A DNA stretch of 64,000 nucleotides from Thermodesulfobacteriota bacterium (GCA_963675595.2 CAXXLZ010000001.1:288001-352000); one strand, 5' to 3'. Positions 1 through 34,700 are shown, counted from the stretch's first letter. Numbers and translations: made by a program. The notes: a model not told the origin generated them from the sequence alone.

Positions 1-1
1 C

Positions 2-493
2 GTCGAATTCAACGAAATGGGATTCCTCACCGCCGTCCAGCAAGGAGACGAGGAAGCCGTGGCGTTATTTCTCAAAGCGGGCGCCGGCGTCAACGTCACC
101 TGGCCCGGGGCTCACGTATCGGCTCTTATGGTGGCATCCATGCACGACCGAACGGGAATCGCCGCAATGCTCATTTCCAGGGGAGCACAAGTGAACTTTC
201 AGAGCGACCGAGGCGATACGGCCCTGCACTATGCCGCTTATGTCGGCGACCCTCGGCTGGCGAATCTCCTGATCGACGCCGGGGCCTGGCTGAATTCCAG
301 GTCCAACATGGGGGACACTCCTCTCATAACAGCGGCTCGCTTTGGCCGCAGGGATGTGGTCGTGCTTTTGCTGCAACGGGGAGCCGATCCGCACATCCGC
401 AACAGGGACGGAGAGAGCGCGTTGGATGCTGCGAGTGCTCGGGGACACAGGGAGATCGTTTCCCTTCTGGAGAACCCTCCCGTCCCGACCTGA
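2..493 (+). CDS. Ankyrin repeat protein (probably 5'-partial)
   Basis: Repeated GxTALHxAA/GDTPLITAA ankyrin motifs; frame is open from the window edge to the ATG at 17. Confidence 0.9.
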   Translation, partial: VEFNEMGFLTAVQQGDEEAVALFLKAGAGVNVTWPGAHVSALMVASMHDRTGIAAMLISRGAQVNFQSDRGDTALHYAAYVGDPRLANLLIDAGAWLNSRSNMGDTPLITAARFGRRDVVVLLLQRGADPHIRNRDGESALDAASARGHREIVSLLENPPVPT

Positions 494-739
494 ATCTGCG
501 GGTTCGGGCATTGAGAGCCGGTGGGAGGAAGCGTCCGAGTCCCCTTGGAGATAAGGAACTCCAAACCGCGGACGGCATCTTCCCTTACTCGATTGAAAGG
601 GTCCGGTCGTTAAGGGGCGGACCAATTCCTTTCCCGTCCAGTGCGTTTCATGAGGACGATCCATTCAAGGCGTCGCCCGCGCTCACCCCCCTCCCCCGGA
701 GGGCTGGGCCCACGGGACGGAAGGAAACCGGCAGCGCCT

Positions 740-1174
740 TCAGGATCGGCCGGTTCTCGGAATCGCCTCCACCCGGACCGTCACTTCTCCGTATCCCATG
801 CAGGACACACCCGTGTCCGGACACCTTACCTGTCTCATGAAGTGAAAATGTTCCGGATCGAGTCCTTCGCTGAGCCTTTCGTTGATCAAAGCCACGGGAA
901 TACATAGCTGGCCGGCCAAGTAGACGCAGATTCGCTTCGGACAAAACTTGGATAGGAAATTGCCGTCCGCGTCAAGGAGAAAGCGATCTCCCTCGCGGTA
1001 GCCGGAGTTGCAGTTTCTGGCGTGAATCACCTCCGCTTGGATGGAATACCGTGGAGCCGCTTCCGATAAGCGTCTCACATGTCGGATCCGGTGTCCCCCT
1101 TCTTGGAAGCGTTCGAGTTCCTGCTCCGAGTAACCTACCCGGTTTCCGTACCTGCGTATGATGTCCTGGTCCAT
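740..1174 (-). CDS. Cys-containing hypothetical protein (TIGR04076-like)
   Basis: 144 aa with C..G...GDxF, CP...C and RCPD motifs; GGAG SD upstream. Confidence 0.65.
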   Translation of the reverse strand: MDQDIIRRYGNRVGYSEQELERFQEGGHRIRHVRRLSEAAPRYSIQAEVIHARNCNSGYREGDRFLLDADGNFLSKFCPKRICVYLAGQLCIPVALINERLSEGLDPEHFHFMRQVRCPDTGVSCMGYGEVTVRVEAIPRTGRS

Positions 1175-1343
1175 ATTCGACTCCTTTTGTCGGCCGGTCG
1201 CAAAACGGCTGTGATATGGCCCTTCCCGGATTCATTCATGCTGTGAAAGCTGCGTTTTGAATGCGGTTATGCTATAACTATCTGGAATTACAGGATATGC
1301 TTTGAATAAAAAATAAACCTGATTATTCGTTTGGTGAAAAAAC

Positions 1344-1370
1344 TAAAGTAATTTCGCCGTTAGTCGATGT
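1344..1370 (+). promoter_or_regulatory. sigma28 (FliA)-type promoter, distal copy 1
   Basis: TAAA-N15-GTCGATGT versus consensus TAAA-N15-GCCGATAA; spacer nearly identical to those at 5694 and 9675. Confidence 0.75.
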
Positions 1371-1377
1371 GTAAAGT

Positions 1378-1460
1378 GACAACGAGATGCCAGTCTCAAA
1401 CTCCTGATTGAATGAAGAGGACAACCCCGTTCCCGTGTTGCAGGTGCCGGCACATCTGTG
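1378..1460 (+). ncRNA. Candidate anti-flagellin-RBS structured sRNA, copy 1 (3' end unknown)
   Basis: Hairpin GAGA-TGCCAG-TCTC (1384-1397), anti-SD CTCCTGATTGAATG (1401-1414), hairpin CAGGTG-CCGGCA-CATCTG (1441-1458). Confidence 0.55.
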
Positions 1461-2218
1461 ACCCCGGAGCCCACGAGCGTGAAGGAAGCGTTTCGCTTTC
1501 CCGCTCGGAAAGGAGATTGAAGCACCCATCCAAATAGACGCTTTCTGAAGGATTTTCAAGTGGGGTCCGGTTCAACGCCTCCCGCAGCCGGAACGGGCAG
1601 ACCGGCCGAAAGGGAACGAGGGCGTCGGAGACCCCGACGAGAGAAACGAGAACCGTAAACGGGAGTCCCGTTTGATCGAATTTCGCGTAGCGATGAAGAG
1701 ACCGAATACCCAAGGAGAACGCGGAGAATACTACCAATTGATGACGTAGCGGATTTGGCGAGGTGCTCCTCGGTCCCATCCCATGCTCGATTTCAGCGCC
1801 GCCGACCGCGGCGGGGGCGTTGCGAGGGGAGGACCCGGGCTGAGAAGTCAAGACCATCTTGAGGCGTCGAGGTCTTTGGGGAAGCTGAAAGCCGTATTCA
1901 CGGCTTTGGCGAGCCGCGAGCCTTTAGGTTTCGTTCGCGTCCACCGCCGGGGCACAATGCATTTTCAGCGGTGGGAACCTCATCCATATTATTCTGAAGC
2001 ACAATCGGCAGTCGTCTATCTAAATTCACCCAAAACTTTCGAAGCCTCGACTCAACAGGAAGTGGAATCTCCGTTCCGCCTCCTCTTATCTCGAGCAGTA
2101 CCCTCCTCTTTTGCCCTAATCCGACATCTATTGCACGAATCGGCCACCGGAAAGCAAGCTCGGGAGACCATTTGTCCCGCATAAAGGCTCCGATTGTGAA
2201 AAAAATTTGTTCTCATGC

Positions 2219-2245
2219 TAAAGTTGGTTCACAAAGTGACGATAT
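2219..2245 (+). promoter_or_regulatory. sigma28-type promoter of flagellin 1
   Basis: TAAA-N15-GACGATAT about 195 nt upstream of the ATG. Confidence 0.75.
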
Positions 2246-2438
2246 CCAAAGCGAAGCTGTTGAATAAATCGATGAATCCAAACCGAGATTAAAAGTTTTT
2301 TACAGATTTCGTTTTTCGAAGGGAGGAATTCGAAAGAATATAAACCGGAACATCAAAAACGTCATTTGCCGGATGACGCGACGAACAACCATGCGGGGAA
2401 GGGAGTCCCCTAAGCATTCAATCAAGGAGGATTGAGAA

Positions 2439-5285
2439 ATGGCATTATCCGTTGTTAACAATCTTGCATCTTTTTCCGCCCAGCAGGCCCTCACCAAGAG
2501 CACGTACCATCTTCAGAAGGCCCTGAATCATCTTTCCACCGGCTACCGCATCAACAGTGCGGCGGACGATCCCTCCGGCTTGGCCATTTCCGAGCGATTT
2601 CGCGGTCAGATTCGAGGCCTGGAGCGCGCCACGGCCAACGCCCTGGATGCTCAGTCCATGCTGCAGACCGCCGAAGGCTCGCTGGGGGAAACGCACGCCA
2701 TTCTTCAGCGCATGCGGGAACTGGCCGTTCAGGCGGCCAACGGCGTGCTCACCGGAAGCGACAGACAGGAACTGCAGCGCGAGGTGGATCAATTAAAGGA
2801 AGAAATCGACCGCATCGCCACGGCTACCGAGTTCAATACCAAGAAGCTTCTCGATGGATCCTCGGCCGCCCTGTGGAGCGCGGACGGATCGGATATCACC
2901 GCGATCATCCGAGGTCGCGTTGTGGAAGGAAACTACAAGCTGGTCAAGAACGCCGAGCCCCTGACCAATCATGTGTTGAAAACGGACATTTTTCGTTTGA
3001 AGGACGGAGCGATCTCACAAGAGGAGGAAGGGTCCGCCAACCAGTTGCGCTTCACCTTCGGTGGGGATGACGGTGAATTAACCGTGGCGGGCGGATCGAC
3101 CCTGAATTTCCGTTTCAACTTCGACGGTGTGAACAACATCGATATCGGGGTAACGGCGGGATCCGCGGACGGAAGCGGATTTACGGACGCCGAATACCTG
3201 GCGAGGGTGATCAACGCCAACTCGACCATCAGCCGATACGTCGAGGCCGAATTGGTTTCCGAAGGCGATATTGTTTTGCGGTCCAAAGAAGTCACGGAAA
3301 TCGGAGACAATTATACTCTGCAACTGGTCACCGCCGGGGGCGGGGCTTCCGCGGTGGCGGCGTGGCAGCCCAACATTACCAATTGGGGCGGAGATGAGTT
3401 GAGCTCGACCCAGACGAGCAACAACCTCTGGACTACCGCGGTACGATTCGCCGATTTCGATCTTGTTGTGGGGTCGACGGCATCGGGAACCATGGGAACC
3501 TTCGGCACGGACCGCGCGACGGCCGCCGAGAACAAAGTGATCCAATATGTGAGTAATGCGGCGGAGCTCGAGGGCGGCGACTACGAAATCACCACTGTGG
3601 CGGCGGATAACATCCCCAGCGGCCTGCAGGGTGCGGATGGTTTGAGCGTCGACGCCGGCTTGCTCATGGGCGCCTATATGAAGAGCTCTTCCACTGCGGA
3701 AGTCACCACGATTCAGGCCGCCGTGGACGCAAACCATTACGTGATCGTCGAGGTCACCGGGGCCGGCGGGAGCGGCGTGGTGGACCTCAAAGTCTCCTGG
3801 GATCAGGGCGCCACCTGGACCAACATCGGCAACTACCATGAGGGCGCGTCAATTAATAAGCTAGCCGGGGATCCGGATAACTGGTTCTCCTTGCAGTTCA
3901 ACGGCGATATGGCTACGGGGGACCGTTTGCTCATCGGATTGCAGAATGGAATCGCAGCGACCTCCAACGTGGCGCGGCTCACGGGTCCCGCCAACGAATG
4001 GACCAACATAGCGGATTCCGACGGTGGATGGGACCCGAGGGAGAACCTCGCCGGCGCGGACTTCCAGTATTTCAATCATGGGCTTTGGGAAGATTTGGGT
4101 GCCAACCCGGGAAGCAAAACCGATACTTTGACCTTTGCCCGCATGGACGAGGAAGGACGCGTAACCTTTGGCACGCTGGACGTCACCTGGGGCACCGATG
4201 CCAACTTCGAGAGCAGAAGTTCGAGCATCAACATTCTCCAAGGGGGAGACGTCGCCGGCTTGACCACGGAACTGTCCAAAATCGACCGGTTCTACGACGC
4301 CAATGGAAATTTTATTCTGGGCGATAACGGCAAGTGGATCGACATCTACACCGCCGCGGGAGATCAGGCTTCTTTTTATGTGGACGGCGGCGACACGGTA
4401 AAGGAGCTTGCCGATAAGATCGAGCAGATCATCAGCCTGGAGGCCACCTCTCAAAACTGGGAAGGCCTGGGATTGGGCACCGTACTGGATTCCGAAGGCG
4501 AGAATCATGTGGTGGACTTTGTTACCAACGCCACGGAGAACTCCGACGAAGCGGTCAAGGGAACCCTGCTCATTCGGTCGCCGAAACAAGGATTGAGCGG
4601 AATCCTTTACTTCAGCGCGGAAGAAGCCGTGCTCAACGCTCTGAGTCTGGCCACGATTAAGGACCCGTCCGAGGACGTGGACCCGTTGACGGTTGAGGTA
4701 TACGATGCGCACACGGGGGAATTGATCGGACAGGATACGGTAAGCGACAACGTGCTTCACGGCGTCATCCAGGGAGTTGATGTTCTGGTGGACGCCAATG
4801 TGGACATCAATTACTCCTGGAACGAAAACACCAAAGAAATCGACTTCTACAGCGCCACCGAAGACCAGATCGAATACCTGCACGTTGTGGACAACTCGGT
4901 GAATTTTCAGATCGGCGCCAACCCCGGGCAAATCATGGAAGCTCATATCTCACAGATGGATGCTTTGGGGCTCGGAATCGAAAACGTGCTGGTCGTGAAC
5001 CAAGCCACGGCAGTGGCCGCCTTGGACAGCATCGATGAGGCCATCCAACGGGTGTCTTCAGAACGCGCCCGACTGGGTGCCTATGTCAACCGACTCGATT
5101 TCACCATTTCGAACCTGGCCGTTCAGGAGGAGAATCAGATCGCAGCCGAGTCCCTGATTCGCGACCTCGACATGGCCATGGCCATCTCGGAGATGACCCA
5201 GTACCAGATTCTGCAGCAGGTGGGCGTTGCCATGTTGGCTCAGGCCAATGCCATGCCTCAGAGCCTCCTCAGCCTGCTCGGATAA
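2439..5285 (+). CDS. fliC: Flagellin 1 (948 aa, large variable domain)
   Basis: N-terminal LSTGYRINSAADDPSGLAISE...LQRMRELAVQAAN; C-terminal RARLGAYVNRL...IRDLDMA...MLAQAN. Confidence 0.97.
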   Translation: MALSVVNNLASFSAQQALTKSTYHLQKALNHLSTGYRINSAADDPSGLAISERFRGQIRGLERATANALDAQSMLQTAEGSLGETHAILQRMRELAVQAANGVLTGSDRQELQREVDQLKEEIDRIATATEFNTKKLLDGSSAALWSADGSDITAIIRGRVVEGNYKLVKNAEPLTNHVLKTDIFRLKDGAISQEEEGSANQLRFTFGGDDGELTVAGGSTLNFRFNFDGVNNIDIGVTAGSADGSGFTDAEYLARVINANSTISRYVEAELVSEGDIVLRSKEVTEIGDNYTLQLVTAGGGASAVAAWQPNITNWGGDELSSTQTSNNLWTTAVRFADFDLVVGSTASGTMGTFGTDRATAAENKVIQYVSNAAELEGGDYEITTVAADNIPSGLQGADGLSVDAGLLMGAYMKSSSTAEVTTIQAAVDANHYVIVEVTGAGGSGVVDLKVSWDQGATWTNIGNYHEGASINKLAGDPDNWFSLQFNGDMATGDRLLIGLQNGIAATSNVARLTGPANEWTNIADSDGGWDPRENLAGADFQYFNHGLWEDLGANPGSKTDTLTFARMDEEGRVTFGTLDVTWGTDANFESRSSSINILQGGDVAGLTTELSKIDRFYDANGNFILGDNGKWIDIYTAAGDQASFYVDGGDTVKELADKIEQIISLEATSQNWEGLGLGTVLDSEGENHVVDFVTNATENSDEAVKGTLLIRSPKQGLSGILYFSAEEAVLNALSLATIKDPSEDVDPLTVEVYDAHTGELIGQDTVSDNVLHGVIQGVDVLVDANVDINYSWNENTKEIDFYSATEDQIEYLHVVDNSVNFQIGANPGQIMEAHISQMDALGLGIENVLVVNQATAVAALDSIDEAIQRVSSERARLGAYVNRLDFTISNLAVQEENQIAAESLIRDLDMAMAISEMTQYQILQQVGVAMLAQANAMPQSLLSLLG

Positions 5286-5307
5286 CCTGCGGTCCGCGAC
5301 GCAATTC

Positions 5308-5345
5308 AAGGCGGGGCTCCGTTTCGGAGCCCCGCCTTCTTTTTC
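5308..5345 (+). terminator. Rho-independent terminator after flagellin 1
   Basis: AAGGCGGGGCTCCG-TTT-CGGAGCCCCGCCTT hairpin followed by a T-tract. Confidence 0.85.
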
Positions 5346-5693
5346 GTAACGGTTCTCCTCCACGCCCGCCCATTTCTTCTCGGGATACCTTCGGATTCCG
5401 ATTTCGGTGACATCTCGAGCCGCCGCCACTCGTGCTTCGGCCGGACGCCGGCACACGAAGCGCTTCCCAGCCTCCGCGTCGTCCTCCGTTCCTGCATTCG
5501 TGAGAGTTGAAATCGGTACAACCCCTTAATTCCCGTCGCCGTTGACGTTATGGGCGCAGGTTGAGGCACGGCGAGGCCTCGAAGACCCGTCTGAATCGGT
5601 TGTCTTGGTGGCGTTTTCCCGGCGCTAAGGTATGCGATGGAGTAAAATTTCAATTTATGAACAAAGTCGAACACGATTTTTCTTTTATAAATG

Positions 5694-5720
5694 TAAAGTA
5701 TTTTCGCCGTTTGACGATGT
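5694..5720 (+). promoter_or_regulatory. sigma28-type promoter, distal copy 2
   Basis: TAAA-N15-GACGATGT. Confidence 0.75.
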
Positions 5721-5727
5721 AAGAATC

Positions 5728-5810
5728 AAACAGGTAATGCCACCTGAACTCCTTGATTGAATGCGGATTGGGAAGCCGAAAACTCCCGGGTGCCGGCACA
5801 TCCGGAAGAA
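5728..5810 (+). ncRNA. Candidate anti-flagellin-RBS structured sRNA, copy 2 (3' end unknown)
   Basis: Hairpin CAGGT-AATGCC-ACCTG (5731-5746); 5749-5773 is the exact reverse complement of 10277-10301; hairpin CCGGGTG-CCGGCA-CATCCGG (5786-5805). Confidence 0.65.
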
Positions 5811-6057
5811 AAAGGCGAAGTTAACCGTCACGACACACAAGAAACATCGCAACGGATGGGAGGATGATCCATCTTTCGTTAAGTCGTCGGATTCGGGCCG
5901 CCCGGGGTCGGGCATCAAACTCCGTGCAATGCTTTTCCGGCCTCCGGGATAGTCGTTAGGAACGGCACGAACCCCGAATATTCAAATCTTTCTCTCCTTT
6001 TTGATCAGCCGACAGTCCCCGGTTGAGCGCAAAATGCGCTTTTCCGCGCCTTGACAC

Positions 6058-6084
6058 TCAAGTTCGTCCGTTTCACACCGATAC
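6058..6084 (+). promoter_or_regulatory. sigma28-type promoter of flagellin 2
   Basis: TCAA-N15-ACCGATAC, positionally equivalent to the promoter at 10032. Confidence 0.65.
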
Positions 6085-6345
6085 AATTTGCGGGTAACTG
6101 CGGGGATCGCACCCGTCTCAAGCGGACGTGCATGCGATTTCCCTATCGTCTTTTGGTGATGCACGTTGATCCGAGCACCCTTGCCGGAGGGAGAGCGGAG
6201 GCGATGTGCATTGCTGCGGAAAGGGGGGGATAAGCCAACTAGAGCGCACTATTCCGTTGAGAATCGCCCCATAAGGGGACATCTCACGATGCCTTAGACG
6301 AGGGAATGGATTCCCGATCTGAGTTCAATCAAGGAGGATTGATTC

Positions 6346-9162
6346 ATGGCATTGACTGTTGTCAATAATATTGCTTCATTCGCTGCTCAGAAGGCCCTCA
6401 GTTCGAGTACCACTCACCTGCAGAACGCCCTGAACAGCCTTTCCACCGGCCTCCGCATCAACAGCGCGGCGGACGACCCGTCCGGACTGGCGATTTCCGA
6501 GCGGTTCCGCAGCCAGATTCGAGGCTTGGAACGCGCCACGTCCAACGCCTTGGACGCTCAGTCCATGCTGCAAACCGCGGAAGGCTCCCTCGGAGAAACC
6601 CACGCCATCCTGCAACGTATGCGCGAACTGGCGGTTCAAGCGGCCAACGGCGTGTTGACCGCAAGCGACCGGCAGGAAGTTCAGCGCGAAGTGGACCAGC
6701 TCAAAGAAGAAATCAACCGCATCGCCAACACCACCGAGTTCAACACCAAGAAACTGCTGGACGGTTCCTCCACGGCCCTTTGGAGCGCGAACAATTCCGA
6801 CATTGAAGCGGTCATTCGCGGAAAGGTGGCCGAAGGCAACTACAAGCTGGTGAAGAGTGCGGAGCCGCTGAGCAACCAGGTACTGAAGACGGATATCTTC
6901 CGGCTGAAAGACGGGGCCATCTCCCAGGCGGAAGAGGGTTCTCCGAACCAGATGCGGTTCACTTTCGGCGGATCGGATGCGACAATAGACGGAACCGGGG
7001 CGTCGACATTGACGTTCCGGTTCAACTTCGACGGCGTGAACAACATAGACGTATCGTTGAACTCGGCGTCGGGAGACGCCGCCCTCTTAACCGACGCGCG
7101 GTATTTGGTGGATGCCCTCAACGCCAACGCGACCATCAGCCAATACGTCGAAGTGGAGCTGGTGTCCAACTCGGACATTATCATTCGGTCCAAGGGGGTA
7201 ACGGACGAAAGCGACAATTATACCCTTCAGCTGGTGACCGGCGGAGGCGGTGCGTCGGCCGTGGCGGCGTGGCAGGCCAACATCACCAACTGGAGCGGAG
7301 ATGAGCTGAGTTCGACCCAGGCGACCAACAACCTCTTTACTTCCGCGGTCCGTTTCGCGGATTTCGATCAGATCGAAGGTCAGGTGAACTCGGGAGTGAC
7401 GGGCACCTTCGGAACGGACCGAACCACGGCCGCGCAGAACAAGGTGATCCAGTATGTGAGCAACGCCGAGAACCTCGAAGGGGGCGATTACGAAATCCTT
7501 ACCCTGTCGGCGAACGACTTTCCGAGCGGTACGGCGGGCGGAATCGGCGCTGTGGACTCCGCGTGGATTTTGGGCGCTCATCGACAAAGTTCGTCCACGG
7601 GAGAGATCGTGACCCTTACGGCGAGCGTTGACGAGAACCAGTACGTCATCGTCGAAGTGACCGGCGCAGGGGGCAGCGGCGTGGTGGACCTGAAGGTTTC
7701 CTGGGACCAGGGAGAAACCTGGACCAATGTTGGGAACTATCATGATGGGACTTCCATCAATAAGACTACCGGAGACCCGGCCAACTGGTTCTCCATGGAC
7801 TTGAACGGTGACTTGGCCACCGGCGACCGGTTCCTTTTCGGTCTGCAGGACCAATTGGATACGACCTCCAACTATGCCAGGCTGACGGGTCCCGCCAACG
7901 ATTGGTCGACCAGCTTGACCGCGGATCTGACGGAAGACTACGAGAACTTCAACCACGGGTTATGGCAGGACCTGGGAGCCAATCCGGGTGAGAAGACCCA
8001 TACCCTGACGCTTGCGAGCATGGACGAGGAAGGACGGGTGACCTTCGGCACCCTCGATGCCACCTGGGGAATGGATGACGATTTCGAGAGCCGAAGCTCG
8101 AACATCAAGATTCTCGAGGGCGGCGACGTTGCCGGTCTGACCACGGAGTTGTCCAAGATCGATCGATTCTACGACTCCAGCGGGAACTTCGTCCTGGGCG
8201 ACAGCGGCAAATGGATCGATGTCTACACCGCCGACGGAGACAACGCGTCGTTCTACGTGGACGGCGGTGATACGGTTCAGGAGCTTGCCGACAAGCTGGA
8301 ACAGATCATCAGCCTAACCTCGACTTCCCAAAACTGGGATGGTCTGGGGCTGGGCACGGTGCTGGACTCCGACGGCGAGAACCACGTGGTGGATTTCGTT
8401 ACCAACGCCACGGAGAACTCCGACGAAGCCGTCGAAGGAACCATGATCATTCGTTCGCCCAAACAAGGGGTCAACGGCTACCTCTATTTCAGTGCGGAGG
8501 AAGACCTGCTCAACGCCCTGAGTTTGGCCACCATCCAGGACCCCAAGGAAGACATCGATCCTCTCACGGTCACCGTATACAACGCCCACACGGGCGAGTT
8601 GATCGGCGAGGACACGGTGAGCGACAACGTCCTGCACGGAGTCATCCAGGGTGTGGACGTAATGGTGGACGCCAATGTGGACATCTCTTACTCCTGGAAC
8701 GATGATACTCGAGAGATCGACTTCTACAGTTCGGAAGGAGTGCAGGAAGAGTACCTCCACGTGGTGGACAATTCGGTGAACTTCCAGATCGGCGCCAACC
8801 CGGGCCAAGTGATGGAAGCCTACATCACACAGATGGATACCGTGGGATTGGGCGTTCAAAACGTTCTGGTGGTGAACCAGGAGACGGCCTCCGATGCCAT
8901 GTCCACCATCGACGACGCCATCCAAAGGGTGTCCTCGGAACGCGCCAGGCTGGGCGCTTACGTGAACCGTCTCGACTTTACCATCTCGAACCTGGCGGTT
9001 CAGGAGGAAAACCAGATCGCGGCGGAATCTTTGATCCGCGACCTGGATATGGCCAAGGCCATTTCCGAAATGACCCAGTACCAGGTGTTGCAGCAGGTGG
9101 GTGTGGCCATGCTGGCCCAGGCCAATACCTTGCCTCAGATGGTGCTGTCCCTACTCCGGTAA
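6346..9162 (+). CDS. fliC: Flagellin 2 (938 aa)
   Basis: Conserved flagellin N- and C-terminal helical domains; paralog of 2439-5285. Confidence 0.97.
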   Translation: MALTVVNNIASFAAQKALSSSTTHLQNALNSLSTGLRINSAADDPSGLAISERFRSQIRGLERATSNALDAQSMLQTAEGSLGETHAILQRMRELAVQAANGVLTASDRQEVQREVDQLKEEINRIANTTEFNTKKLLDGSSTALWSANNSDIEAVIRGKVAEGNYKLVKSAEPLSNQVLKTDIFRLKDGAISQAEEGSPNQMRFTFGGSDATIDGTGASTLTFRFNFDGVNNIDVSLNSASGDAALLTDARYLVDALNANATISQYVEVELVSNSDIIIRSKGVTDESDNYTLQLVTGGGGASAVAAWQANITNWSGDELSSTQATNNLFTSAVRFADFDQIEGQVNSGVTGTFGTDRTTAAQNKVIQYVSNAENLEGGDYEILTLSANDFPSGTAGGIGAVDSAWILGAHRQSSSTGEIVTLTASVDENQYVIVEVTGAGGSGVVDLKVSWDQGETWTNVGNYHDGTSINKTTGDPANWFSMDLNGDLATGDRFLFGLQDQLDTTSNYARLTGPANDWSTSLTADLTEDYENFNHGLWQDLGANPGEKTHTLTLASMDEEGRVTFGTLDATWGMDDDFESRSSNIKILEGGDVAGLTTELSKIDRFYDSSGNFVLGDSGKWIDVYTADGDNASFYVDGGDTVQELADKLEQIISLTSTSQNWDGLGLGTVLDSDGENHVVDFVTNATENSDEAVEGTMIIRSPKQGVNGYLYFSAEEDLLNALSLATIQDPKEDIDPLTVTVYNAHTGELIGEDTVSDNVLHGVIQGVDVMVDANVDISYSWNDDTREIDFYSSEGVQEEYLHVVDNSVNFQIGANPGQVMEAYITQMDTVGLGVQNVLVVNQETASDAMSTIDDAIQRVSSERARLGAYVNRLDFTISNLAVQEENQIAAESLIRDLDMAKAISEMTQYQVLQQVGVAMLAQANTLPQMVLSLLR

Positions 9163-9674
9163 ACTGAAACCATAATGATCCATAGGGGGCCCCGCATGAC
9201 CGGGCTCCCGCAACGGATCGAGTCCGGTGTCGAGGCGAACCGCCTCGGCATCGTTCTCTCCAAACCCAATTCGGGACCAAAACCGGTTCAAGGCCATTCC
9301 CTCCCCGAAGCCTGCCCGGTTCGCCCGGATCACCTTCGGCTCCCCAGCTGCGGAGCGGGTTTCGTCACGGAGCCGCGCTCCACCTTTTCGACATCCCCTC
9401 CATATGGCTCCTCAGGAGCGCTCTTCTTGTCGTTTCTCGCAAAGTGCGCCACCGTTATCATTTCATGGATCTAAGAATAAGCAAGGGGTGAGGTAGACGC
9501 CTCATTTCGTTAATAGTGGTTGTAGTGCCGACGATTGACCCTCCATTCACGAAACGCCTGAAACCTTAGGTTTCTATCTGTGGTTTCGGTGCCGGCTTTG
9601 CGCTCCTTATCATGATGACGGAGTGCGATTTGAAGTCATGGTGAAACCTAAAGACGATTTTTTTCATATGAAGG

Positions 9675-9701
9675 TAAAGTAATTTCGCCGGTTGACGATA
9701 T
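9675..9701 (+). promoter_or_regulatory. sigma28-type promoter, distal copy 3
   Basis: TAAA-N15-GACGATAT. Confidence 0.75.
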
Positions 9702-9708
9702 ACAAATC

Positions 9709-9790
9709 AAACAGGTAATGCCACCTGAACTCCTTGATTGAATGCAGATTGGGAAGCCCGCAACTCCCGGGTGCCGGCACACCCGGAAGA
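9709..9790 (+). ncRNA. Candidate anti-flagellin-RBS structured sRNA, copy 3 (3' end unknown)
   Basis: Hairpin CAGGT-AATGCC-ACCTG (9712-9727); anti-SD CTCCTTGATTGAATGCAGATTGGGAA (9730-9755); perfect hairpin CCGGGTG-CCGGCA-CACCCGG (9767-9786). Confidence 0.65.
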
Positions 9791-10031
9791 AAAAGGCCGA
9801 GTTAACGCATCAACCCCGTGACGAACCTAGGTGAAGAAATCCACAGGAGGTGTTTTTCTCAAAACCATAAATCGCCGGCCCGTCACAGCCCATCCAGAGG
9901 CGTCGGGGTTCCCGTTCCATGCCCTTCTATTTTCAGGGTTGACGGGAGGTCGCTCGCGCTCTGGTACCTCCCCGCCTTACGTTCAACCCCCCTCGGGCGA
10001 ACGCAAGATACGTTTTCCTATGCCCTGAAGC

Positions 10032-10058
10032 TAAAGTTCCGCCTTTCCATGCCGATGC
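10032..10058 (+). promoter_or_regulatory. sigma28-type promoter of flagellin 3
   Basis: TAAA-N15-GCCGATGC, near consensus. Confidence 0.85.
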
Positions 10059-10310
10059 TATAACCGACCGACTATCGGATTTGCACGAGTCTCGTGAAGA
10101 CGTGCGTGCAGATTTCCATCTCCGAGGCGCGAGCCGCTGATCCGTGGACCCTTGCCGGAGGGCGAACGGGGATGACAAGCGCCGCGGCGAAAGGGGGGAT
10201 GCCCGGAAATATGCTGATTCTTGGGGGACGTCCCATGGGAGGGAAGTCTCTCAAAACCTCAGACAAGGGAATGGAATCCCAATCCGCATTCAATCAAGGA
10301 GGATTGATTC

Positions 10311-13157
10311 ATGGCATTGACTGTTGTCAACAACATTGCTTCCTTTGCTGCTCAGAAGGCGCTCAGCTCGAGTACCACTCACCTGCAGAACGCCCTGAAC
10401 AGCCTTTCCACCGGCCTTCGCATCAACAGCGCGGCGGACGATCCGTCCGGACTGGCGATTTCCGAGCGGTTCCGCAGCCAGATTCGGGGCTTGGAACGCG
10501 CCACGTCCAACGCCTTGGACGCCCAGTCCATGCTGCAAACCGCGGAAGGTTCTCTCGGAGAAACCCACGCCATCCTGCAACGTATGCGCGAACTGGCGGT
10601 TCAGGCGGCCAACGGCGTGTTGACCGCAAGCGACCGGCAGGAAGTTCAGCGCGAAGTGGACCAGCTCAAGGAAGAGATCAACCGCATCGCCAACACCACC
10701 GAGTTCAACACCAAAAAGCTACTGGACGGCTCCTCCACGGCCCTCTGGAGCGCGAACAATTCCGACATTGAAGCGGTGATTACGGGAAAGGTGTCCGAAG
10801 GCAACTACAAACTGGTGAAGAGCGCCGAGCCGCTCAGTAACCATGTGTTGAAGACGGACATTTTCCGGCTGAAAGACGGAGCCATCTCGCAGGCCGAAGA
10901 GGGGTCCGCGAACCAGATGCGCCTCACTTTCGGTGGAGACGACGGAGAAGTGACCGTCGCAGGCGGATCGACCCTGAACTTCCGGTTCAACTTCGACGGT
11001 GTAAACAACATCGATATCGGAGTAACCGCAGGATCCGCCGACGGCACGGGCTTTACGGACGCTGAATATCTGGCGCGGGCCATCAACGCCCACTCGACCA
11101 TCAGCCAGTACGTGGAGGCGGAACTGGTGTCCGAGGGCGATATCATTATTCGCGCCAAGGATGTGACGGACGACAGCGACAACTACACGCTGCAAATGGT
11201 GACCGCCGGAGGCGGCGCGTCGGCCGTGGCGGCGTGGCAGCCCAACATCACCAATTGGGGCGGTGATGAACTTAGCTCGACCCAGACGAGCAATAACCTC
11301 TGGACTTCCGCGGTCCGTTTCGCGGATTTCGATCAGATCGAAGGTACGGTCAACTCGGGAGTCACGGGCACCTTCGGTACGGATCGGACCACCGCCGCCG
11401 AGAACAAGGTGATCCAGTACGTCAGCAACGCCGCCGATCTCGAAGCGGGCGACTATCAGATCACAACGGTGGCAACGGGCGACATCCCCAGCGGTTTGCA
11501 GAGTACGGACGGTCTGACCGTGGATCAGGGTCTGCTCATGGGCGCTTATCTCACGAGCACGTCCACGGCGGAAGTCACGACGATTCAGGCGGCCGTGGAT
11601 GAGAATCAGTACGTTATCGTCGAGGTGACGGGAGCCGGCGGCAGCGGCGCGGTGGACCTGAAGGTTTCCTGGGACCAGGGCGCCACATGGTCCAGTGTCG
11701 GGAACTACCACGAAGGAACCTCCATCAACAAGGTCGCCGGAGACCCGGACAACTGGTTCACGCTGGAATTCACCGGGGACATGGCGACCGGAGACCGCTT
11801 GCTTATCGGGCTCCAGAACGGGATTGCAGCGACTTCCAACGTGGCGAGGCTGACCGGTCCGGCCAACGAATGGACCAATGTAACGGATTCCGACGGAGAT
11901 TGGGACCCGAGGGAAAACCTGGCCGGGGCGGATTACCAAACCTTCAATCATGGGCTGTGGGAAGACCTGGGGGCCAATCCCGGTGAGAAGACCCATACCC
12001 TGACGTTTGCGAGCATGGACGATGAAGGGCGGGTGACCTTCGGCACCCTCGACGCCACCTGGGGCGCGGATGACGACTTCGAGAGCCGAAGCTCGAGCAT
12101 CAAGATTCTCGAGGGCGGCGACGTCGCCGGTCTGACCACGGAGTTGTCCAAGATCGATCGGTTCTACGACTCCAGCGGGAACTTCGTCCTGGGCGACAGC
12201 GGCAAATGGATCGATATCTACACCGCAGAAGGAGACAACGCGTCGTTCTATGTGGACGGCGGCGACACGGTGCAGGAGCTTGCCGACAAGCTGGAGCAGA
12301 TCATCAGTCTCACCTCGACTTCCCAGAACTGGGATGGTCTGGGGCTGGGCACGGTGCTGGACTCCGACGGCGAGAACCACGTGGTGGATTTCGTTACCAA
12401 CGCCACGGAGAACTCCGACGAAGCCGTCGAAGGAACCATGATCATTCGTTCGCCCAAACAAGGGGTCAACGGCTACCTCTATTTCAGTGCGGAGGAAGAC
12501 GTACTCAACGCCCTGAGTTTGGCCACCATCCAGGACCCCAAAGAAGACATCGATCCTCTCACGGTCACCGTATACAACGCCCACACGGGTGAGTTGATCG
12601 GTGAGGATACGGTGAGCGACAACGTCCTGCACGGAGTCATCCAGGGTGTGGACGTGATGGTGGACGCCAATGTGGACATCTCCTACTCCTGGAACGAGGA
12701 TACTCGAGAGATCGACTTCTTCAGTTCGGAAGGAGTGCAGGAAGAGTACCTCCACGTGGTGGACAATTCGGTGAACTTCCAGATCGGCGCCAACCCGGGC
12801 CAAGTGATGGAAGCCTATATCACACAGATGGACACCGTGGGATTGGGCGTTCAGAACGTTCTGGTGGTGAACCAGGCGACGGCCTCCGATGCCATGTCCA
12901 CCATCGACGACGCCATCCAGAAGGTGTCCTCGGAACGCGCCAGGCTCGGCGCCTACGTGAACCGTCTCGACTTCACCATCTCGAACCTGGCGGTTCAGGA
13001 GGAAAACCAGATCGCGGCGGAATCTTTGATCCGCGACCTGGATATGGCCAAGGCCATTTCCGAAATGACCCAGTATCAGGTGTTGCAGCAGGTGGGTGTG
13101 GCCATGCTGGCCCAGGCCAACACGTTGCCTCAGATGGTGCTGTCCTTACTCCGGTAA
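10311..13157 (+). CDS. fliC: Flagellin 3 (948 aa, mosaic of flagellins 1 and 2)
   Basis: Conserved flagellin termini almost identical to flagellin 2; central blocks resemble flagellin 1. Confidence 0.97.
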   Translation: MALTVVNNIASFAAQKALSSSTTHLQNALNSLSTGLRINSAADDPSGLAISERFRSQIRGLERATSNALDAQSMLQTAEGSLGETHAILQRMRELAVQAANGVLTASDRQEVQREVDQLKEEINRIANTTEFNTKKLLDGSSTALWSANNSDIEAVITGKVSEGNYKLVKSAEPLSNHVLKTDIFRLKDGAISQAEEGSANQMRLTFGGDDGEVTVAGGSTLNFRFNFDGVNNIDIGVTAGSADGTGFTDAEYLARAINAHSTISQYVEAELVSEGDIIIRAKDVTDDSDNYTLQMVTAGGGASAVAAWQPNITNWGGDELSSTQTSNNLWTSAVRFADFDQIEGTVNSGVTGTFGTDRTTAAENKVIQYVSNAADLEAGDYQITTVATGDIPSGLQSTDGLTVDQGLLMGAYLTSTSTAEVTTIQAAVDENQYVIVEVTGAGGSGAVDLKVSWDQGATWSSVGNYHEGTSINKVAGDPDNWFTLEFTGDMATGDRLLIGLQNGIAATSNVARLTGPANEWTNVTDSDGDWDPRENLAGADYQTFNHGLWEDLGANPGEKTHTLTFASMDDEGRVTFGTLDATWGADDDFESRSSSIKILEGGDVAGLTTELSKIDRFYDSSGNFVLGDSGKWIDIYTAEGDNASFYVDGGDTVQELADKLEQIISLTSTSQNWDGLGLGTVLDSDGENHVVDFVTNATENSDEAVEGTMIIRSPKQGVNGYLYFSAEEDVLNALSLATIQDPKEDIDPLTVTVYNAHTGELIGEDTVSDNVLHGVIQGVDVMVDANVDISYSWNEDTREIDFFSSEGVQEEYLHVVDNSVNFQIGANPGQVMEAYITQMDTVGLGVQNVLVVNQATASDAMSTIDDAIQKVSSERARLGAYVNRLDFTISNLAVQEENQIAAESLIRDLDMAKAISEMTQYQVLQQVGVAMLAQANTLPQMVLSLLR

Positions 13158-13247
13158 ACTGAAACAATGCATAACACCGTCGGGAATCCCCTAATGATTG
13201 GGATTTCCGATGGTTTCGCCCTACAGAGGTAAGCGAGGTGAACGGAC

Positions 13248-13661
13248 ATGGTAGAACTGGGACTGCTTGAGATATCCCGACAAACCGTGGCCGCCTCAGA
13301 TAATGAGATGCGAGGGAAGCCGGCCGCGGAGAGGCGGATAGACCACACGGCGGCGCTCCAACTCCTCCCTGAAGATCGGGTGGACAAGCCGACGAGGCCG
13401 AATCCCACTAAACCCGGCTCGGTTTCGGGCAAAGACGCGGATGTCGAGAAGACGGAAGAGAATCAGGAAGTGGTGGAACTGATGCCCCCTGGGCGTGTCG
13501 GTTTTGAGTACAAGGTCGACAAAGAATTGGGGCGGGTTTCGCTCAAGGTTTATGACAAAGAAACGGGAGAAACCATCCGGGAGGTACCGCCGGAGGAGCT
13601 TACGGAGGTTGCCAAGAAGATGAAGAAAATGGCCGGAATTCTTTTCGAGAAGAAGGTGTAG
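13248..13661 (+). CDS. flaG: Flagellar protein FlaG
   Basis: C-terminal motif VYDKETGETIREVPPEE...GILFEKKV; located directly after a flagellin. Confidence 0.9.
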   Translation: MVELGLLEISRQTVAASDNEMRGKPAAERRIDHTAALQLLPEDRVDKPTRPNPTKPGSVSGKDADVEKTEENQEVVELMPPGRVGFEYKVDKELGRVSLKVYDKETGETIREVPPEELTEVAKKMKKMAGILFEKKV

Positions 13662-13974
13662 CAGAGCTGATTTCCACCCATCTCGTGTGGGAGGACGCTT
13701 GATCGCTTCCCGGCAAGTTCGAAAAGACATGGGGAGCGTAAAGGGTGTGGTATGTCCTGAGAAGCGAATGTTTCCCTCCGCCCTTGTATCTCATCTCTCG
13801 CCGTGCTTCGAAGGTCCCGAAGTACTCTCCGGCTTCGGGGCTTCTATTCCGATGCTGCGGTCCGGCGCCTCTTCTTGGCCTCGCTCCCAATCCCCAACCG
13901 CTTGTCACCCGTTGTGGTTTCGCCTACAATACGATTCCTTTGGCAAATCCAGACGAGGAAGGAATCTATTGGTC

Positions 13975-14451
13975 ATGACTTGGAAGCGTAAGGTAATGCG
14001 TCTCTTTTACTTGGGCGCGGTGGTTTGTCTGGTTGGAACGCTGGCTGTTTCCTCGGCCGCCGCGGCGAAAGTCCGGTGGGAGTCCTATGACGAAGGGATC
14101 GCTCGAGGAAAGAAGGAGCAGAAGAAGATACTGGTGAAGTTTCACGCGGATTGGTGCACTTACTGCAAAGAGATGGAGCGGACCACCTTTTCCGATCCGG
14201 AAATCGTGGCCTACATCAATCGCTATTTTGTTCCCGTGTCCGTGGATACGGATAAACAGAAGGGGCTTGCCGTCAGGTACCGGGTGAACAGTCTTCCGGC
14301 TTCCTGGTTCTTGGATTATAAAGGTGAGCAGATCCTTCCCGTGCCGGGATATGTACCCCCAAAAATGTATCTTTATTTCCTGGAATGGATTGCGGAGGAC
14401 GGGTACAAGGATACGTCCCTGAAGGACTTTCTGAAGAATAAGAAGGAATGA
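13975..14451 (+). CDS. Exported thioredoxin-family protein (SoxW/DsbD-gamma-like)
   Basis: Signal peptide, FHADWCTYCKEM CxxC motif, cis-Pro SLP; start reassigned from 13687. Confidence 0.85.
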   Translation: MTWKRKVMRLFYLGAVVCLVGTLAVSSAAAAKVRWESYDEGIARGKKEQKKILVKFHADWCTYCKEMERTTFSDPEIVAYINRYFVPVSVDTDKQKGLAVRYRVNSLPASWFLDYKGEQILPVPGYVPPKMYLYFLEWIAEDGYKDTSLKDFLKNKKE

Positions 14452-14527
14452 GCCGGAAGGAATGATCCTCCGATTTCCGTCGTGGGGACCGGAAGGGCGG
14501 GGAAAGGATCGGCTTCCCGGGGTCCGG

Positions 14528-15268
14528 TCAGAGCTTATTCACGAACCATTCGGGTGCCACGCTTTGCAGGTAGCTGTTGATGGTCGCCAGGCTGTCCGTG
14601 AAGATCAACAGACCCACCAGAACCAACAATATCCCGGCGAAGAGGTTGAATACCGGGAGCCACCGTTTGATTCGGCTGAGCAGTGGAAGAAAATGACCCA
14701 CCGCCAGGGACGCGAGAAAGAACGGGACCGCCATTCCGAGGGAATAAGTGGTCAGCAGGATGATTCCCTGGGTTGCATTCTGATGGGTCCCCGCAACCAT
14801 TAGAATCGACCCGAGAATGGGCCCCACGCACGGAGTCCAGCCCACCGCGAAAGTGATTCCCACCAACGTCGTTCCCAAATAGCCGGCAGGCTTGTGCCGC
14901 AAGTGAACCGAGAATTCCTTCATCAGAAAAGGAAGCTGAAACTTGTATGAGAGGGCGATGAGCAGGCCGAAGAGGATGATCAATATCCCCCCGACCTTTC
15001 GGATGATATCCCCGTAGTCGAAAAAGAAACTCCCGAGGGTGCTGAAAGAGAAGCCCAGCGCCACAAAAGCGATCGAAAAACCGAGGATGAAGAAAAGGGA
15101 GTGGATGATCACCCGTCTACGGTATACGGGCTGGTCCTCAATGGCGATCTGATCGTAGCTGAGGCCGGTAATAAAGCTCAAATAGGAAGGGAACAACGGA
15201 AGGGTGCAGGGGGACAGAAAGGTCAACACCCCGGCGGTGAAAGCGATAAGGATGGTCACATCGGCCAA
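14528..15268 (-). CDS. ccdA: Cytochrome c biogenesis / transmembrane electron transporter CcdA
   Basis: FLSPCTLPL and GWTPCVGPILG motifs; about six TM helices. Confidence 0.92.
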   Translation of the reverse strand: MADVTILIAFTAGVLTFLSPCTLPLFPSYLSFITGLSYDQIAIEDQPVYRRRVIIHSLFFILGFSIAFVALGFSFSTLGSFFFDYGDIIRKVGGILIILFGLLIALSYKFQLPFLMKEFSVHLRHKPAGYLGTTLVGITFAVGWTPCVGPILGSILMVAGTHQNATQGIILLTTYSLGMAVPFFLASLAVGHFLPLLSRIKRWLPVFNLFAGILLVLVGLLIFTDSLATINSYLQSVAPEWFVNKL

Positions 15269-15350
15269 GCTGCTCCCCCCTGAAATTAAAGTCTTCCGTT
15301 GACGTGGATGTTTGTAAGTGGATTCAGGACCTCACCGGACCGGGGCGGGG

Positions 15351-15509
15351 TCATGAGTTGTCCTCTTCTCCCATATCGTCCCGCTTTTTCGAGTCACCGA
15401 CCCGACACGAGGACCGCATTCACGTATCCACCCCCAGTCCGGGAAGCACCACCGCTTGCAGCAGCACCCATAAGCCGACGACGATCAGAAAAATCCAAAC
15501 TTCGTTCAT
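15351..15509 (-). CDS. Predicted small membrane selenoprotein (52 aa, Sec30), not in the ORF track
   Basis: GGAG SD; MNEVWIFLIVVGLWVLLQAVVLPGLGVDT-UGA-MRSSCRVGDSKKRDDMGEEDNS; SECIS-like hairpin after the UGA. Confidence 0.6.
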
Positions 15510-15539
15510 TGTATTCTCCAACGCCCGGTTGGAGCCTGC

Positions 15540-15761
15540 TCAACCTCAGGAAAAGGGTGAAGACGACGGTCCGCAACTCGAACGGGCTGATGAGGCAACG
15601 CTCCCGTTTAGAGGACCGGAGCAGGTCGCAAAGGCGGATAGGAGTCTCTTTGGGTTGGATGCTCCACACTTGGGGCATTTGACCTCTGCAACCTTTCCCA
15701 AGGAGACGATTTCTTCAAAGTGGTGTGAGCATTGGTCGCAACAAAACTCGTACAACGGCAT
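15540..15761 (-). CDS. FmdB-family zinc-ribbon protein, probable C-terminal Sec-Gly
   Basis: MPLYEFCCDQC...CPKCG...; ends SPFS-TGA-GGT-TGA followed by hairpin CTCCAAC-CGGGC-GTTGGAG. Confidence 0.8.
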
Positions 15762-15925
15762 ACGTTTTTTCCTCCGGCGCACTGTACGCTCCTTCCAGGA
15801 GCGTCGTATGAGTTCAATTCACTGTTAAACATTTTCCAGTTTTTTTCAAGGAGCATATCCCTCCCGGACCGGGAGCCGTTCCTTCGGCCGCTCCGGAGAC
15901 TCCGTTTCAGCGGCTTCAGGTTTCA

Positions 15926-16141
15926 TCAGCCTCACCCGCAACAGGATCTTTTAACGGCTGGACTAGGCGATCCTTCCCGGCCTTGTTCGGCACTTGTTCG
16001 TTTCTTGACGTCGCATCCCGAACGGCCCGTATTCCGGCTTCCGCAATGGGGGCATTTCTCTTTTCGCAGCCTCCACCCTCTCGCGACAGCCGAAAATACG
16101 CTCTCACAGTCCCCACACACGAATGTTACAGGCGCTTTCAT
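15926..16141 (-). CDS. Second zinc-ribbon protein, possible C-terminal Sec-Gly
   Basis: CGDC...CPHCGS; ends RSCCG-TGA-GGC-TGA; AGGAGG SD. Confidence 0.65.
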
Positions 16142-16194: not shown

Positions 16195-16986
16195 TTACAC
16201 GTTTCTATGGATAGGAGTGAAGAAAACCTTTTCCGAAGGCTTCGCGTCCAGAAACCCGGCGACGGGACTCAGGTCGGCCAAGCGACGGGTAAGGTTGGGC
16301 CAAAACCCCTCTCCACCCAAGTGGAGCCACCCGCCGATGTGGACGAGAACACCGCCTGATGCGGCCTTTGTCCGAGCCCAAAGACGCCGGATTTTACGCT
16401 CCATGGTATCGGTCCTTCGATTCCATTCCACCGACGTATCGCCATCCATAAGAATCAGCTCCCAAGGCGCAGACTTTCCGTGAAAGCGGACGGCCACTTG
16501 CTTTCTGAGGTTTTCGAAACTCTCGGATGGGTGACGGGGCGCGAGTCTAAGCATGGCCTCGAGATTGGGCATCGAGATCAGTTCTTCGAGAAATGGGAGC
16601 TTGTTTTTTGAGGATTCCGAGTCGTCCGTGCAAACCACCGTTGTAGACCTGGAATGGGCGTAGTCCCGGCTCGCGCTGAACTCGAAAGGCAGGGCGATCT
16701 GGTTCCTGATGTTCCGAAATGGCTCGAGCTGGAGGATGGACTCGATCTCAAGGTTTCTTTTTTTTGCCAGAAGACGCAGCCGCTCATCGAGGAGTTGCAG
16801 TTGTCTACGGGCGTGCTTCATTCGGAAACGGACTGCATAGGGACTGGTTTCGACACTGACGATCGTGGGACCGATGCGGTCGAGCATTCGCTTAAGCAGT
16901 TCTTCCCCTCTCGGGTCCCTGTGGATCGTACCAAGAAGGAAAAGACGGGCTTCCGGAACGGCTGTGGAGTCCGCCGAAGGGCTCAA
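16195..16986 (-). CDS. Hypothetical protein (TraB/EreA-like fold possible)
   Basis: LLGTIHRD...VSVE...VHIGGWLH; start overlaps the HDOD gene stop. Confidence 0.7.
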   Translation of the reverse strand: MSPSADSTAVPEARLFLLGTIHRDPRGEELLKRMLDRIGPTIVSVETSPYAVRFRMKHARRQLQLLDERLRLLAKKRNLEIESILQLEPFRNIRNQIALPFEFSASRDYAHSRSTTVVCTDDSESSKNKLPFLEELISMPNLEAMLRLAPRHPSESFENLRKQVAVRFHGKSAPWELILMDGDTSVEWNRRTDTMERKIRRLWARTKAASGGVLVHIGGWLHLGGEGFWPNLTRRLADLSPVAGFLDAKPSEKVFFTPIHRNV

Positions 16987-19753: not shown

Positions 19754-20133
19754 GTAGTTTTCCCCTTGTATTCGTTTGGGATCAGAAGCAACGACGCTTG
19801 GCCGTAAGTTGTCACAATTTGCATGACAGATCAAGGAAAAAGTGCGGCGATCCGTGTGCGGCGGATTCAACCGTCGGAGAGGAGCCGGGCGTTGCGACAC
19901 TCATCGGTTTTTTGGAAAGGAATCCGTTCGGAAACCATGCCCCACCCTTGAAAACCTTTCCCCGAAGCATTAAAATTTTATAGTACGATTTTTGTAGGGC
20001 GGCAGCCCTCTTTTTTTCGATTGGAGATTGTTCCCGTGGGAAGTACCTCGAAGGCCGGTCGAGCCGGCCTTTGCGCACAGACAACCGGAACCTTCAGAGC
20101 AAACAGGACTGAACGTTAAAGGAGAGTAACGCG

Positions 20134-33542: not shown

Positions 33543-34700
<1,158 letters not shown>

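Follow-up and report, generated by a model that had tools for sequence, protein, structure and literature searches.

Putative sigma-28-type anti-leader elements with a second, predicted loop-loop pairing site upstream of tandem flagellin genes in a Thermodesulfobacteriota bacterium

Three giant flagellin genes lie in tandem on the plus strand of a 64,000-nucleotide (nt) stretch of DNA from a Thermodesulfobacteriota bacterium (GCA_963675595.2, CAXXLZ010000001.1:288001-352000), the whole of which is referred to here as the window. Flagellin 1 (fla1, 2439..5285, 948 amino acids; Flagellin_N 1.7e-40, Flagellin_C 3.1e-24), flagellin 2 (fla2, 6346..9162, 938 amino acids) and flagellin 3 (fla3, 10311..13157, 948 amino acids), the latter two also assigned by protein domain search, are followed by flaG. 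Upstream of each gene is a short element (e1, e2 and e3) complementary to flagellin leader sequence (leaders L1, L2 and L3). A strong terminator ends fla1 at 5308-5338, ahead of e2. Corresponding elements are found in two relatives of the same family (G001 and G002; the present genome is G000) and on one metagenome contig, L065, in which the leader is cut off, giving six element instances for comparison.

Every element starts with an outer sigma-28-like promoter, which reads in the direction of the flagellin genes. The sigma-28 consensus has TAAA(G) at -35 and a (G)CCGATAA-like box at -10, at canonical spacing. The outer promoters have the form TAAAGT-N15-CGAT(G/A)T and start at 1344, 5694 and 9675 in the window, with equivalents in G001, G002 and L065. 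They occupy 1344..1370 for e1 (TAAAGT-N15-CGATGT), 5694..5720 for e2 and 9675..9701 for e3, all on the plus strand. The spacing TAAAG-N16-CGAT-N18-ATGCC is identical in all six instances, and the genome encodes fliA (252.8 bits, exceeding the family cut-off). Genome-wide there are 17 matches to TAAAG-N16-CGAT, 4 of them inside this 8.3-kb locus; the simple sigma-28 pattern is not enriched in the genome as a whole (17 found, 17 expected) and only the clustering at the locus is informative.

Over about 90 nt behind the promoter, the sequence is complementary to leader positions from roughly -50 to +18 relative to the start codon, a stretch that takes in the AUG together with the initial five or six codons, and cognate pairs of element and leader form 45-51 Watson-Crick pairs. 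The anti-leader of e1 (1377..1436, plus strand) complements the fla1 leader from -53 to +19 with 51 Watson-Crick pairs. Its anti-Shine-Dalgarno stretch has a one-base deletion, and it otherwise mirrors the distinct fla1 leader. It is followed by a predicted 3' hairpin (1437..1462, plus strand) with the stem GTTGCAGGTG/CATCTGTGAC and the loop CCGGCA. For e2 we infer transcription, and the ends of the RNA, from the promoter, the predicted fold and the conserved island described below. The putative RNA (5727..5817, plus strand) would comprise a 5' hairpin at 5731-5746 (loop AAUGCC), an anti-Shine-Dalgarno core at 5749-5773, a hairpin GGGA..UCCC and a 3' hairpin at 5786-5805 (loop CCGGCA). The putative RNA of e3 (9708..9798, plus strand) would have a 5' hairpin at 9712-9727, the core at 9730-9754 and a 3' hairpin, again with the loop CCGGCA, at 9767-9786.

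Units 2 and 3 are identical at 55 of 60 positions within the element and at 22-36 of 60 in the surrounding spacer, and identity recovers only at the leader. The element is therefore an island under constraint. One of the differences between e2 and e3 is in the antisense core; the rest are in a loop, at a stem position changing from G-U to G-C, or in the 3' tail.

The core of e2 (5749-5773, CTCCTTGATTGAATGCGGATTGGGA) is the exact reverse complement (25/25) of the fla3 leader at 10277-10301, as a preliminary description of the window had reported, and this pair is the longest inverted repeat (25 nt, 100%) within 1100-13700. With about 1.6e8 position pairs in 12.6 kb and a probability of 4^-25 for each, about 1e-7 such matches are expected, and the match is far above chance. 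From the complement of its own leader (6311-6336) e2 differs at four positions (83% over 29 nt; 21/25 over the core), two of which can pair as G-U. The core of e3 matches L3 at 24 of 25 positions (96%) and L2 at 86% over 29 nt. A single G>A substitution at 9746 turns a G-C pair with L3 into an A-C mismatch and a G-U pair with L2 into an A-U pair. Both cores match the fla1 leader 16/16 at 2414-2429. All these matches had been noted in the preliminary description; what it missed is that the complementarity extends far past the 25-mer over the leader and is accompanied by a second, loop-loop site.

The second site consists of the motif CCGGCA(C), which is invariant in the six instances at 97-103 nt past the promoter start. 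In five of the six, CCGGCA is placed in a predicted hairpin loop, on stems that differ between lineages (that of e1 given above, CCGGGTG/CA(T/C)CCGG in e2 and e3, and CGCTTCACG/CGTGAAGCG in G001 and L065). Its exact complement, (G/U)UGCCGG, forms the loop of a hairpin predicted in the 5' untranslated region (UTR) of the downstream gene in all six instances. This hairpin is CGTCAT-tTGCCGG-ATGACG in fla1 (2360..2378) and CCCT-TGCCGG-AGGG in fla2 (6178..6191) and fla3 (10149..10162), all on the plus strand, and has the stems GGTTC/GAACC in G001, GTCC/GGAC in G002 and GGTTT/AAACC in L065. TGCCGG is found at most 330 nt from the ATG in 5/5 element-bearing genes as against 0/7 others, the genome average being 0.57 per kb. 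In the UTRs it is always closed by a stem of 4-7 bp, while only 14% of the 7649 TGCCGG sites genome-wide have a stem of at least 4 bp. Neither hairpin has a stem that is the reverse complement of the other's, and the loops are thus not residual homology from a duplication. Modelled loop-loop duplexes have energies of -9.9 to -12.6 kcal/mol. The colinear order of the sites suits antiparallel pairing, with the 5' part of the element opposite the start region and the 3' loop opposite the upstream UTR hairpin. The distance from the element to the UTR hairpin of its target is about 920 nt for e1 and 250-390 nt in the other instances; the interval between e1 and the fla1 UTR (1470-2200) contains only open reading frames (ORFs) without Pfam matches.

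Between element and gene there is in each case an inner sigma-28-like promoter on the plus strand, at 2219..2245 for fla1 (-220 from the ATG), at 6058..6084 for fla2 (-288; TCAAGTT..ACCGATAC, a weaker match) and at 10032..10058 for fla3 (-279). With the equivalents in G001, G002 and L065 the inner promoter is kept in 6/6 instances, always facing the gene. Since the UTR hairpins lie downstream of these promoters, mRNAs started there would contain the two target sites and lack the element, and this implies that the element acts in trans.

The leaders themselves have a common architecture. The fla1 leader and start region (2386..2457, plus strand) contains two GGA hairpins, the Shine-Dalgarno sequence AAGGAGG and the ATG at 2439. 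The corresponding regions of fla2 (6298..6360) and fla3 (10263..10325), also on the plus strand, differ by four changes in leader 2 within 6316-6323, and the fla3 region is the best partner of e2 and e3 alike. The two GGA hairpins, GGGGAAGGGAnTCCCC and CAATCAAGGAGGATTG, are found in every leader of the family and of its sister family, and the second covers the Shine-Dalgarno sequence. The genome has csrA (87.2 bits) next to fliW (130.7 bits). With two GGA hairpin loops, one of them over the Shine-Dalgarno sequence, and with both genes present, the leaders appear to be of the CsrA-FliW type. No Hfq gene was found in the genome, which is 98% complete.

The pattern promoter-N18-ATGCC-N5-11-CTCCT is present in the three family genomes, one per genus, and in none of 92 other genomes of the class. 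A scan of genome contigs with the pattern returned the G002 contig only. Metagenome contigs gave no match to the first pattern and, with a loosened pattern, one G001-like contig ending before the leader. A DNA search with the element in 41 genomes, G000 included, found nothing above noise beyond G000, and a protein-guided scan of genome contigs returned distant flagellins only and no near relatives. A search of window positions 1-16000 against Rfam (E<=1) gave no match to an element, the sole hit being a sucA match within fla3 that scores 25.2 bits, below the gathering threshold of 40. The element precedes one of the two full-length flagellin genes in G001, one of two in G002 and three of five in G000.

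The elements follow the leaders beside them. When each of five elements was cofolded with 12 flagellin leaders from four genomes, the change in free energy (ddG) was best with the adjacent leader for four (e1 -36.6, e3 -31.9, the G001 element -28.9 and the G002 element -25.6); the exception is e2, which prefers L3 (-38.9) to its own L2 (-26.8). The leaders of the two extra G000 flagellins, the further genomic targets for which the preliminary description had suggested a search, pair poorly (-6 to -17). The elements of G001 and G002 complement the genome-specific sequence of their own leaders. This co-variation of guide and leader, in a small sample of kin genomes, gives strong qualitative support to a pairing function and is not a statistic. 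As a separate observation, fla5 of G000 (C2:2595505) has tandem sigma-28-like promoters at -528 and -288, without an anti-leader and without a TGCCGG hairpin. A close relative represented in two sequencing runs has the interval 5748-6353 with 24 other letters and three gaps.

The comparison establishes the sequences themselves, a complementarity that is conserved and co-varies, and the joint occurrence of both loops. On this basis we think it probable, with some reserve, that each element is a small gene for a sigma-28-dependent anti-leader RNA that represses the translation of flagellin and acts chiefly in trans. All the support comes from sequence comparison, and from it we infer the trans action, the repression and any role of RNase III. 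Driven by sigma-28 (FliA), the RNA would start a few bases past the promoter. Its 5' hairpin would display AUGCC, which is complementary to the region of the start codon, an open anti-Shine-Dalgarno stretch would run on into the leader complement back to about -50, and the 3' hairpin would present CCGGCA(C). On meeting a flagellin mRNA from an inner promoter, the RNA would first make a loop-loop kiss with the UGCCGG hairpin of the UTR, and pairing would then zip across the two GGA hairpins, the Shine-Dalgarno sequence and the AUG. Binding of the 30S subunit would be blocked and the duplex perhaps exposed to RNase III. Because regulator and target share a sigma factor, such a circuit would damp or threshold flagellin synthesis, and only that of the paralogs carrying the sites. 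The absence of Hfq fits a mode of antisense action by long duplexes. An inverted duplication of the leader is the probable origin of the elements. Copies 2 and 3, nearly identical to each other, would be redundant, with L3 as the best target and L2 weakened, so that sensitivity would be graded rather than reciprocal.

Several observations weigh against a discrete RNA of this kind. In the minimum-energy fold of the G002 element, CCGGCA is within a stem and not in a loop. No intrinsic terminator was found on the plus strand between any window element and its gene, where the sequence downstream of the elements has only weak hairpins with U-rich tails, and a C>G skew of the Rho type after the element is inconsistent. 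The fold stability of the putative RNA is ordinary (z-scores from +0.05 to -1.61), RNAalifold on the six elements gave a consensus of four pairs only, and the numbers of G-U and A-C combinations in cognate pairs (11 vs 6) are too few to indicate selection at the RNA level. The comparative sample is small and related (three genera plus the one metagenome contig). A search for RNA-seq runs of the organism itself came up empty. One metatranscriptome run had zero depth over 5628-5969, which is uninformative on transcription of the element; apart from a contig from the fla2 UTR and a few fragments inside fla2 it contained nothing more of the locus. That contig, from a rhizosphere metatranscriptome, is 158 nt long and matches 6115-6228, downstream of the inner promoter, with one difference in 114 nt. 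Its source may have been RNA of a closely related organism, or else DNA carried over.

With no terminator after the element, read-through into the flagellin gene is possible, and the same sequences could then act in cis. A transcript from the outer promoter would cross the spacer of 0.4-1 kb and its anti-leader would fold onto the Shine-Dalgarno sequence and AUG of the same molecule, giving a self-silenced or conditionally opened isoform beside the inner-promoter mRNA. The shared strand of element and gene is in keeping with this, as is the adjacent downstream leader being the best partner for four of five elements, and intramolecular pairing would need no chaperone, Hfq not having been found. 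A long 5' UTR of this kind does not account for the inner promoters, which are kept in every instance and whose mRNAs hold both target sites without the element. Nor does it fit a spacer that is unconstrained in sequence and varies in length from about 250 to 920 nt, or an e2 that pairs better with L3 than with the leader beside it. For the association of two separate molecules, first contact between loops is the classic solution. We therefore regard action in cis as rather unlikely, while giving it more weight than the readings that follow.

The preliminary description had proposed guides acting in trans with a reciprocal bias, e2 towards fla3 and e3 towards fla2, leading to mutually exclusive or hierarchical flagellin expression. 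Trans guidance is supported by the promoter of each element, the tracking of the adjacent leader over three genera and the loop-loop site. The reciprocal bias is not supported by the matrix of pairing energies between the three elements and the three leaders. Cofold ddG values with L1, L2 and L3 are -32.8, -25.6 and -29.5 for e1, -27.2, -29.9 and -41.8 for e2, and -27.5, -29.3 and -34.5 for e3. Duplexes of the 29-nt core give -25.8, -22.1 and -21.4 for e1, -35.3, -40.7 and -49.0 for e2, and -34.3, -41.4 and -42.8 for e3, and a second window set gave the same order of preference. Both e2 and e3 thus favour L3. A reciprocal order is obtained with one measure only, RNAduplex on long windows, in which intramolecular structure is ignored (e3 with L2 -72.0 vs L3 -68.7; e2 with L3 -75.9 vs L2 -71.4). 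The gain of e3 over e2 on L2 is just 0.1-0.7 kcal/mol, and e3 is nearly indifferent between L2 and L3.

Mutual repression through crosswise tuning of e2 and e3 consequently seems very improbable. It is suggested by the 25/25 match of e2 to L3 against 21/25 to L2 and by the e3 substitution, which gains a pair on L2 and loses one on L3, and there is a parallel in Vibrio cholerae, where flagellin-locus small RNAs (sRNAs) are described as repressing other flagellins (PMC11879080). The crosswise signal at this locus is a single site, one nucleotide. No input for a switch is visible, since all promoters look sigma-28-type, and the elements are driven independently of the neighbouring flagellin gene, e2 being preceded by the strong fla1 terminator. 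Mutually exclusive expression is accordingly not indicated, and a graded hierarchy only as a possibility.

Three of the four changes in leader 2 are unique to it, whereas L1, L3 and e1-e3 share GCATTCAATC, and leader 2 is therefore the diverged target. The data fit a graded sensitivity, fla3 before fla2, or plain divergence after duplication. In the predicted fold of L2 (6286-6375), an upstream GAUGCC pairs with GGCAUU just past the AUG, and two of the four changes complete a helix UUAGA/UCUGA round the first GGA hairpin; L3 can form neither. Leader 2 may thus possess a start-site clamp of its own, and may have drifted toward its own structure.

Very improbable is a feature at the level of DNA, whether an invertible promoter segment (phase variation) or an inert relic of inverted duplication kept alike by gene conversion, even though inverted repeats of 25-29 nt, 522-530 nt apart, enclose the inner promoter and e2 and L3 are perfect repeats flanking fla2. 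As for inversion, no strand-changing joint was seen in contigs of four sequencing runs, a weak test as contigs drop rare forms. The inner promoter faces the gene in 6/6 instances, and the outer promoter, which points in the same direction, would leave the gene with a sigma-28 promoter in either orientation. A scan of 47 window ORFs turned up no recombinase of the serine or tyrosine type; the only transposase genes found, one of the IS110 family and two DDE, are at least 20 kb off in the distal half of the window (33543-34661, minus strand; 41008-42159, minus strand; 49486-51195, plus strand). A relic leaves the fixed promoter spacing, the invariant loop on non-homologous stems and the matching UTR loop unexplained, and gene conversion with the nearest partner predicts that e2 should match L2, which it does not.

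Three other candidates were rejected. A minus-strand mini-ORF (Shine-Dalgarno, GTG and five codons) does not keep its start in e1, G001 and G002. Plus-strand small ORFs (5761-5952, 9742-9831 and 1412-1537) start at the ATG of the element and, in every lineage, share the frame in which CCGGCAC is read as ..RH..; they have lengths of 19-63 amino acids, no Shine-Dalgarno sequence and unconserved flanking codons, and were judged a chance reading of the nucleotide motif. Ends of a miniature inverted-repeat transposable element or other transposon do not apply, as the right arm is nothing other than the start region of the flagellin gene, which is conserved in relatives without the element.

The remaining features of the locus concern the flagellins and their surroundings. 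Between fla2 and fla3 (6346-9162 and 10311-13157) the 5' 600 nt and the 3' 1200 nt are 90-100% identical and the central blocks 50-70%, which suggests a mosaic of gene-converted ends and a diversified, surface-exposed middle. Just downstream of the flagellin cluster are genes for an HDOD-HD protein (16983-17825, minus strand) and for a protein with an Arc-like DNA-binding domain and PilZ (19247-19900, minus strand), possible motility regulators linked to cyclic di-GMP.

Regulation of flagellin mRNAs by sRNAs from flagellin loci is already known, as are sRNAs under sigma-28. FlaX of Vibrio cholerae is described as an sRNA from a flagellin locus whose pairing with a flagellin mRNA involves more than one site in the 5' UTR; it blocks the 30S subunit and alters the flagellins made, and the authors propose that RNAs of this sort serve flagellin loci in inhibiting other flagellins (PMC11879080). 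FlaX is, according to the same report, an RNase E product of the flaA 3' UTR, made from the flaA promoter and associated with ProQ (PMC11879080). The putative RNA of the element would likewise come from a flagellin locus and act on a flagellin 5' UTR at more than one site. Unlike FlaX as described there, the element has its own sigma-28-like promoter upstream of the target, mirrors about 65-70 nt including the Shine-Dalgarno sequence and AUG, and includes a loop-loop site that is conserved; the two are unrelated in sequence. Sigma-28-dependent sRNAs have been reported for E. coli and C. jejuni (PMC10578931, PMC11187230). The E. coli sRNAs resemble the element in that flagellar-sigma control tunes flagellin level and the number or length of flagella. 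They are, as far as the accounts of them in these sources go, UTR-derived and Hfq-binding with short seeds, MotR and FliX pairing within coding sequences that include ribosomal protein mRNAs, whereas the pairing of the element is long and dedicated to the adjacent flagellin leader, in a genome in which the Hfq gene was not found.

CopA/CopT, RNAI/RNAII and Sok/hok are classical antisense RNAs with kissing-loop initiation. IstR/tisB is a pair at adjacent loci, IstR being named in the FlaX report (PMC11879080). The element resembles these systems in its complementary loops, with an extended duplex then covering the ribosome binding region, and in a regulator placed beside a single dedicated target. 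The modelled loops agree with the classical type. Transcripts of the CopA/CopT type (IstR excepted) come from the opposite strand and overlap the target, and are perfect complements by construction; the element lies on the strand of its target, 0.4-1 kb upstream, and is in this sense not a cis-antisense RNA. Its complementarity must be maintained by selection. It also differs from the classical antisense RNAs in that it would regulate a chromosomal family of structural genes.

The leaders have their closest likeness in C. jejuni flaA, whose hairpins SL1 and SL2 are, like B. subtilis hag, under CsrA-FliW control, CsrA binding the GGA hairpins of flaA (PMC4894983). Here too there are two hairpins with GGA loops, the second over the Shine-Dalgarno sequence, in a genome with csrA and fliW side by side. 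CsrA-FliW control is exerted by a protein repressor, with no antisense RNA. As the anti-leader covers the same GGA sites, the CsrA layer and the RNA layer would compete or cooperate.

A full-text literature search (supplements aside) found no description of such an element, and none in Desulfobacterota. What appears to be new is the promoter of each element, the upstream position on the same strand, the origin as a mirror copy, the kissing loop and the provision of one regulator per paralog. The locus suggests an independent solution in Thermodesulfobacteriota, in which a dedicated, sigma-28-driven mirror copy of the target is placed atop a leader of the CsrA-FliW type. More tentatively, the elements may be a lineage-specific family of regulatory RNAs that arose by inverted duplication of the start regions of their targets and were wired to sigma-28, each before its own flagellin gene. 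The kissing loop and the duplex of about 65-70 nt would then set paralog-specific thresholds, and single substitutions, as in leader 2 and e3, would retune the flagellins of the filament.

Flagellin is among the costliest proteins of a motile cell, and its control by sRNAs is in print, in the accounts cited above, for E. coli, Campylobacter and Vibrio. Three guide-target pairs side by side, together with the differing leaders in related genera, make a compact system for studying the evolution of antisense specificity and the choice of flagellin. How bacterial sRNAs originate is still an open question, and a family in which descent from the target is still legible would help. If the interpretation is true, the locus would be a natural and readable example of an sRNA and its target specificity arising and drifting.

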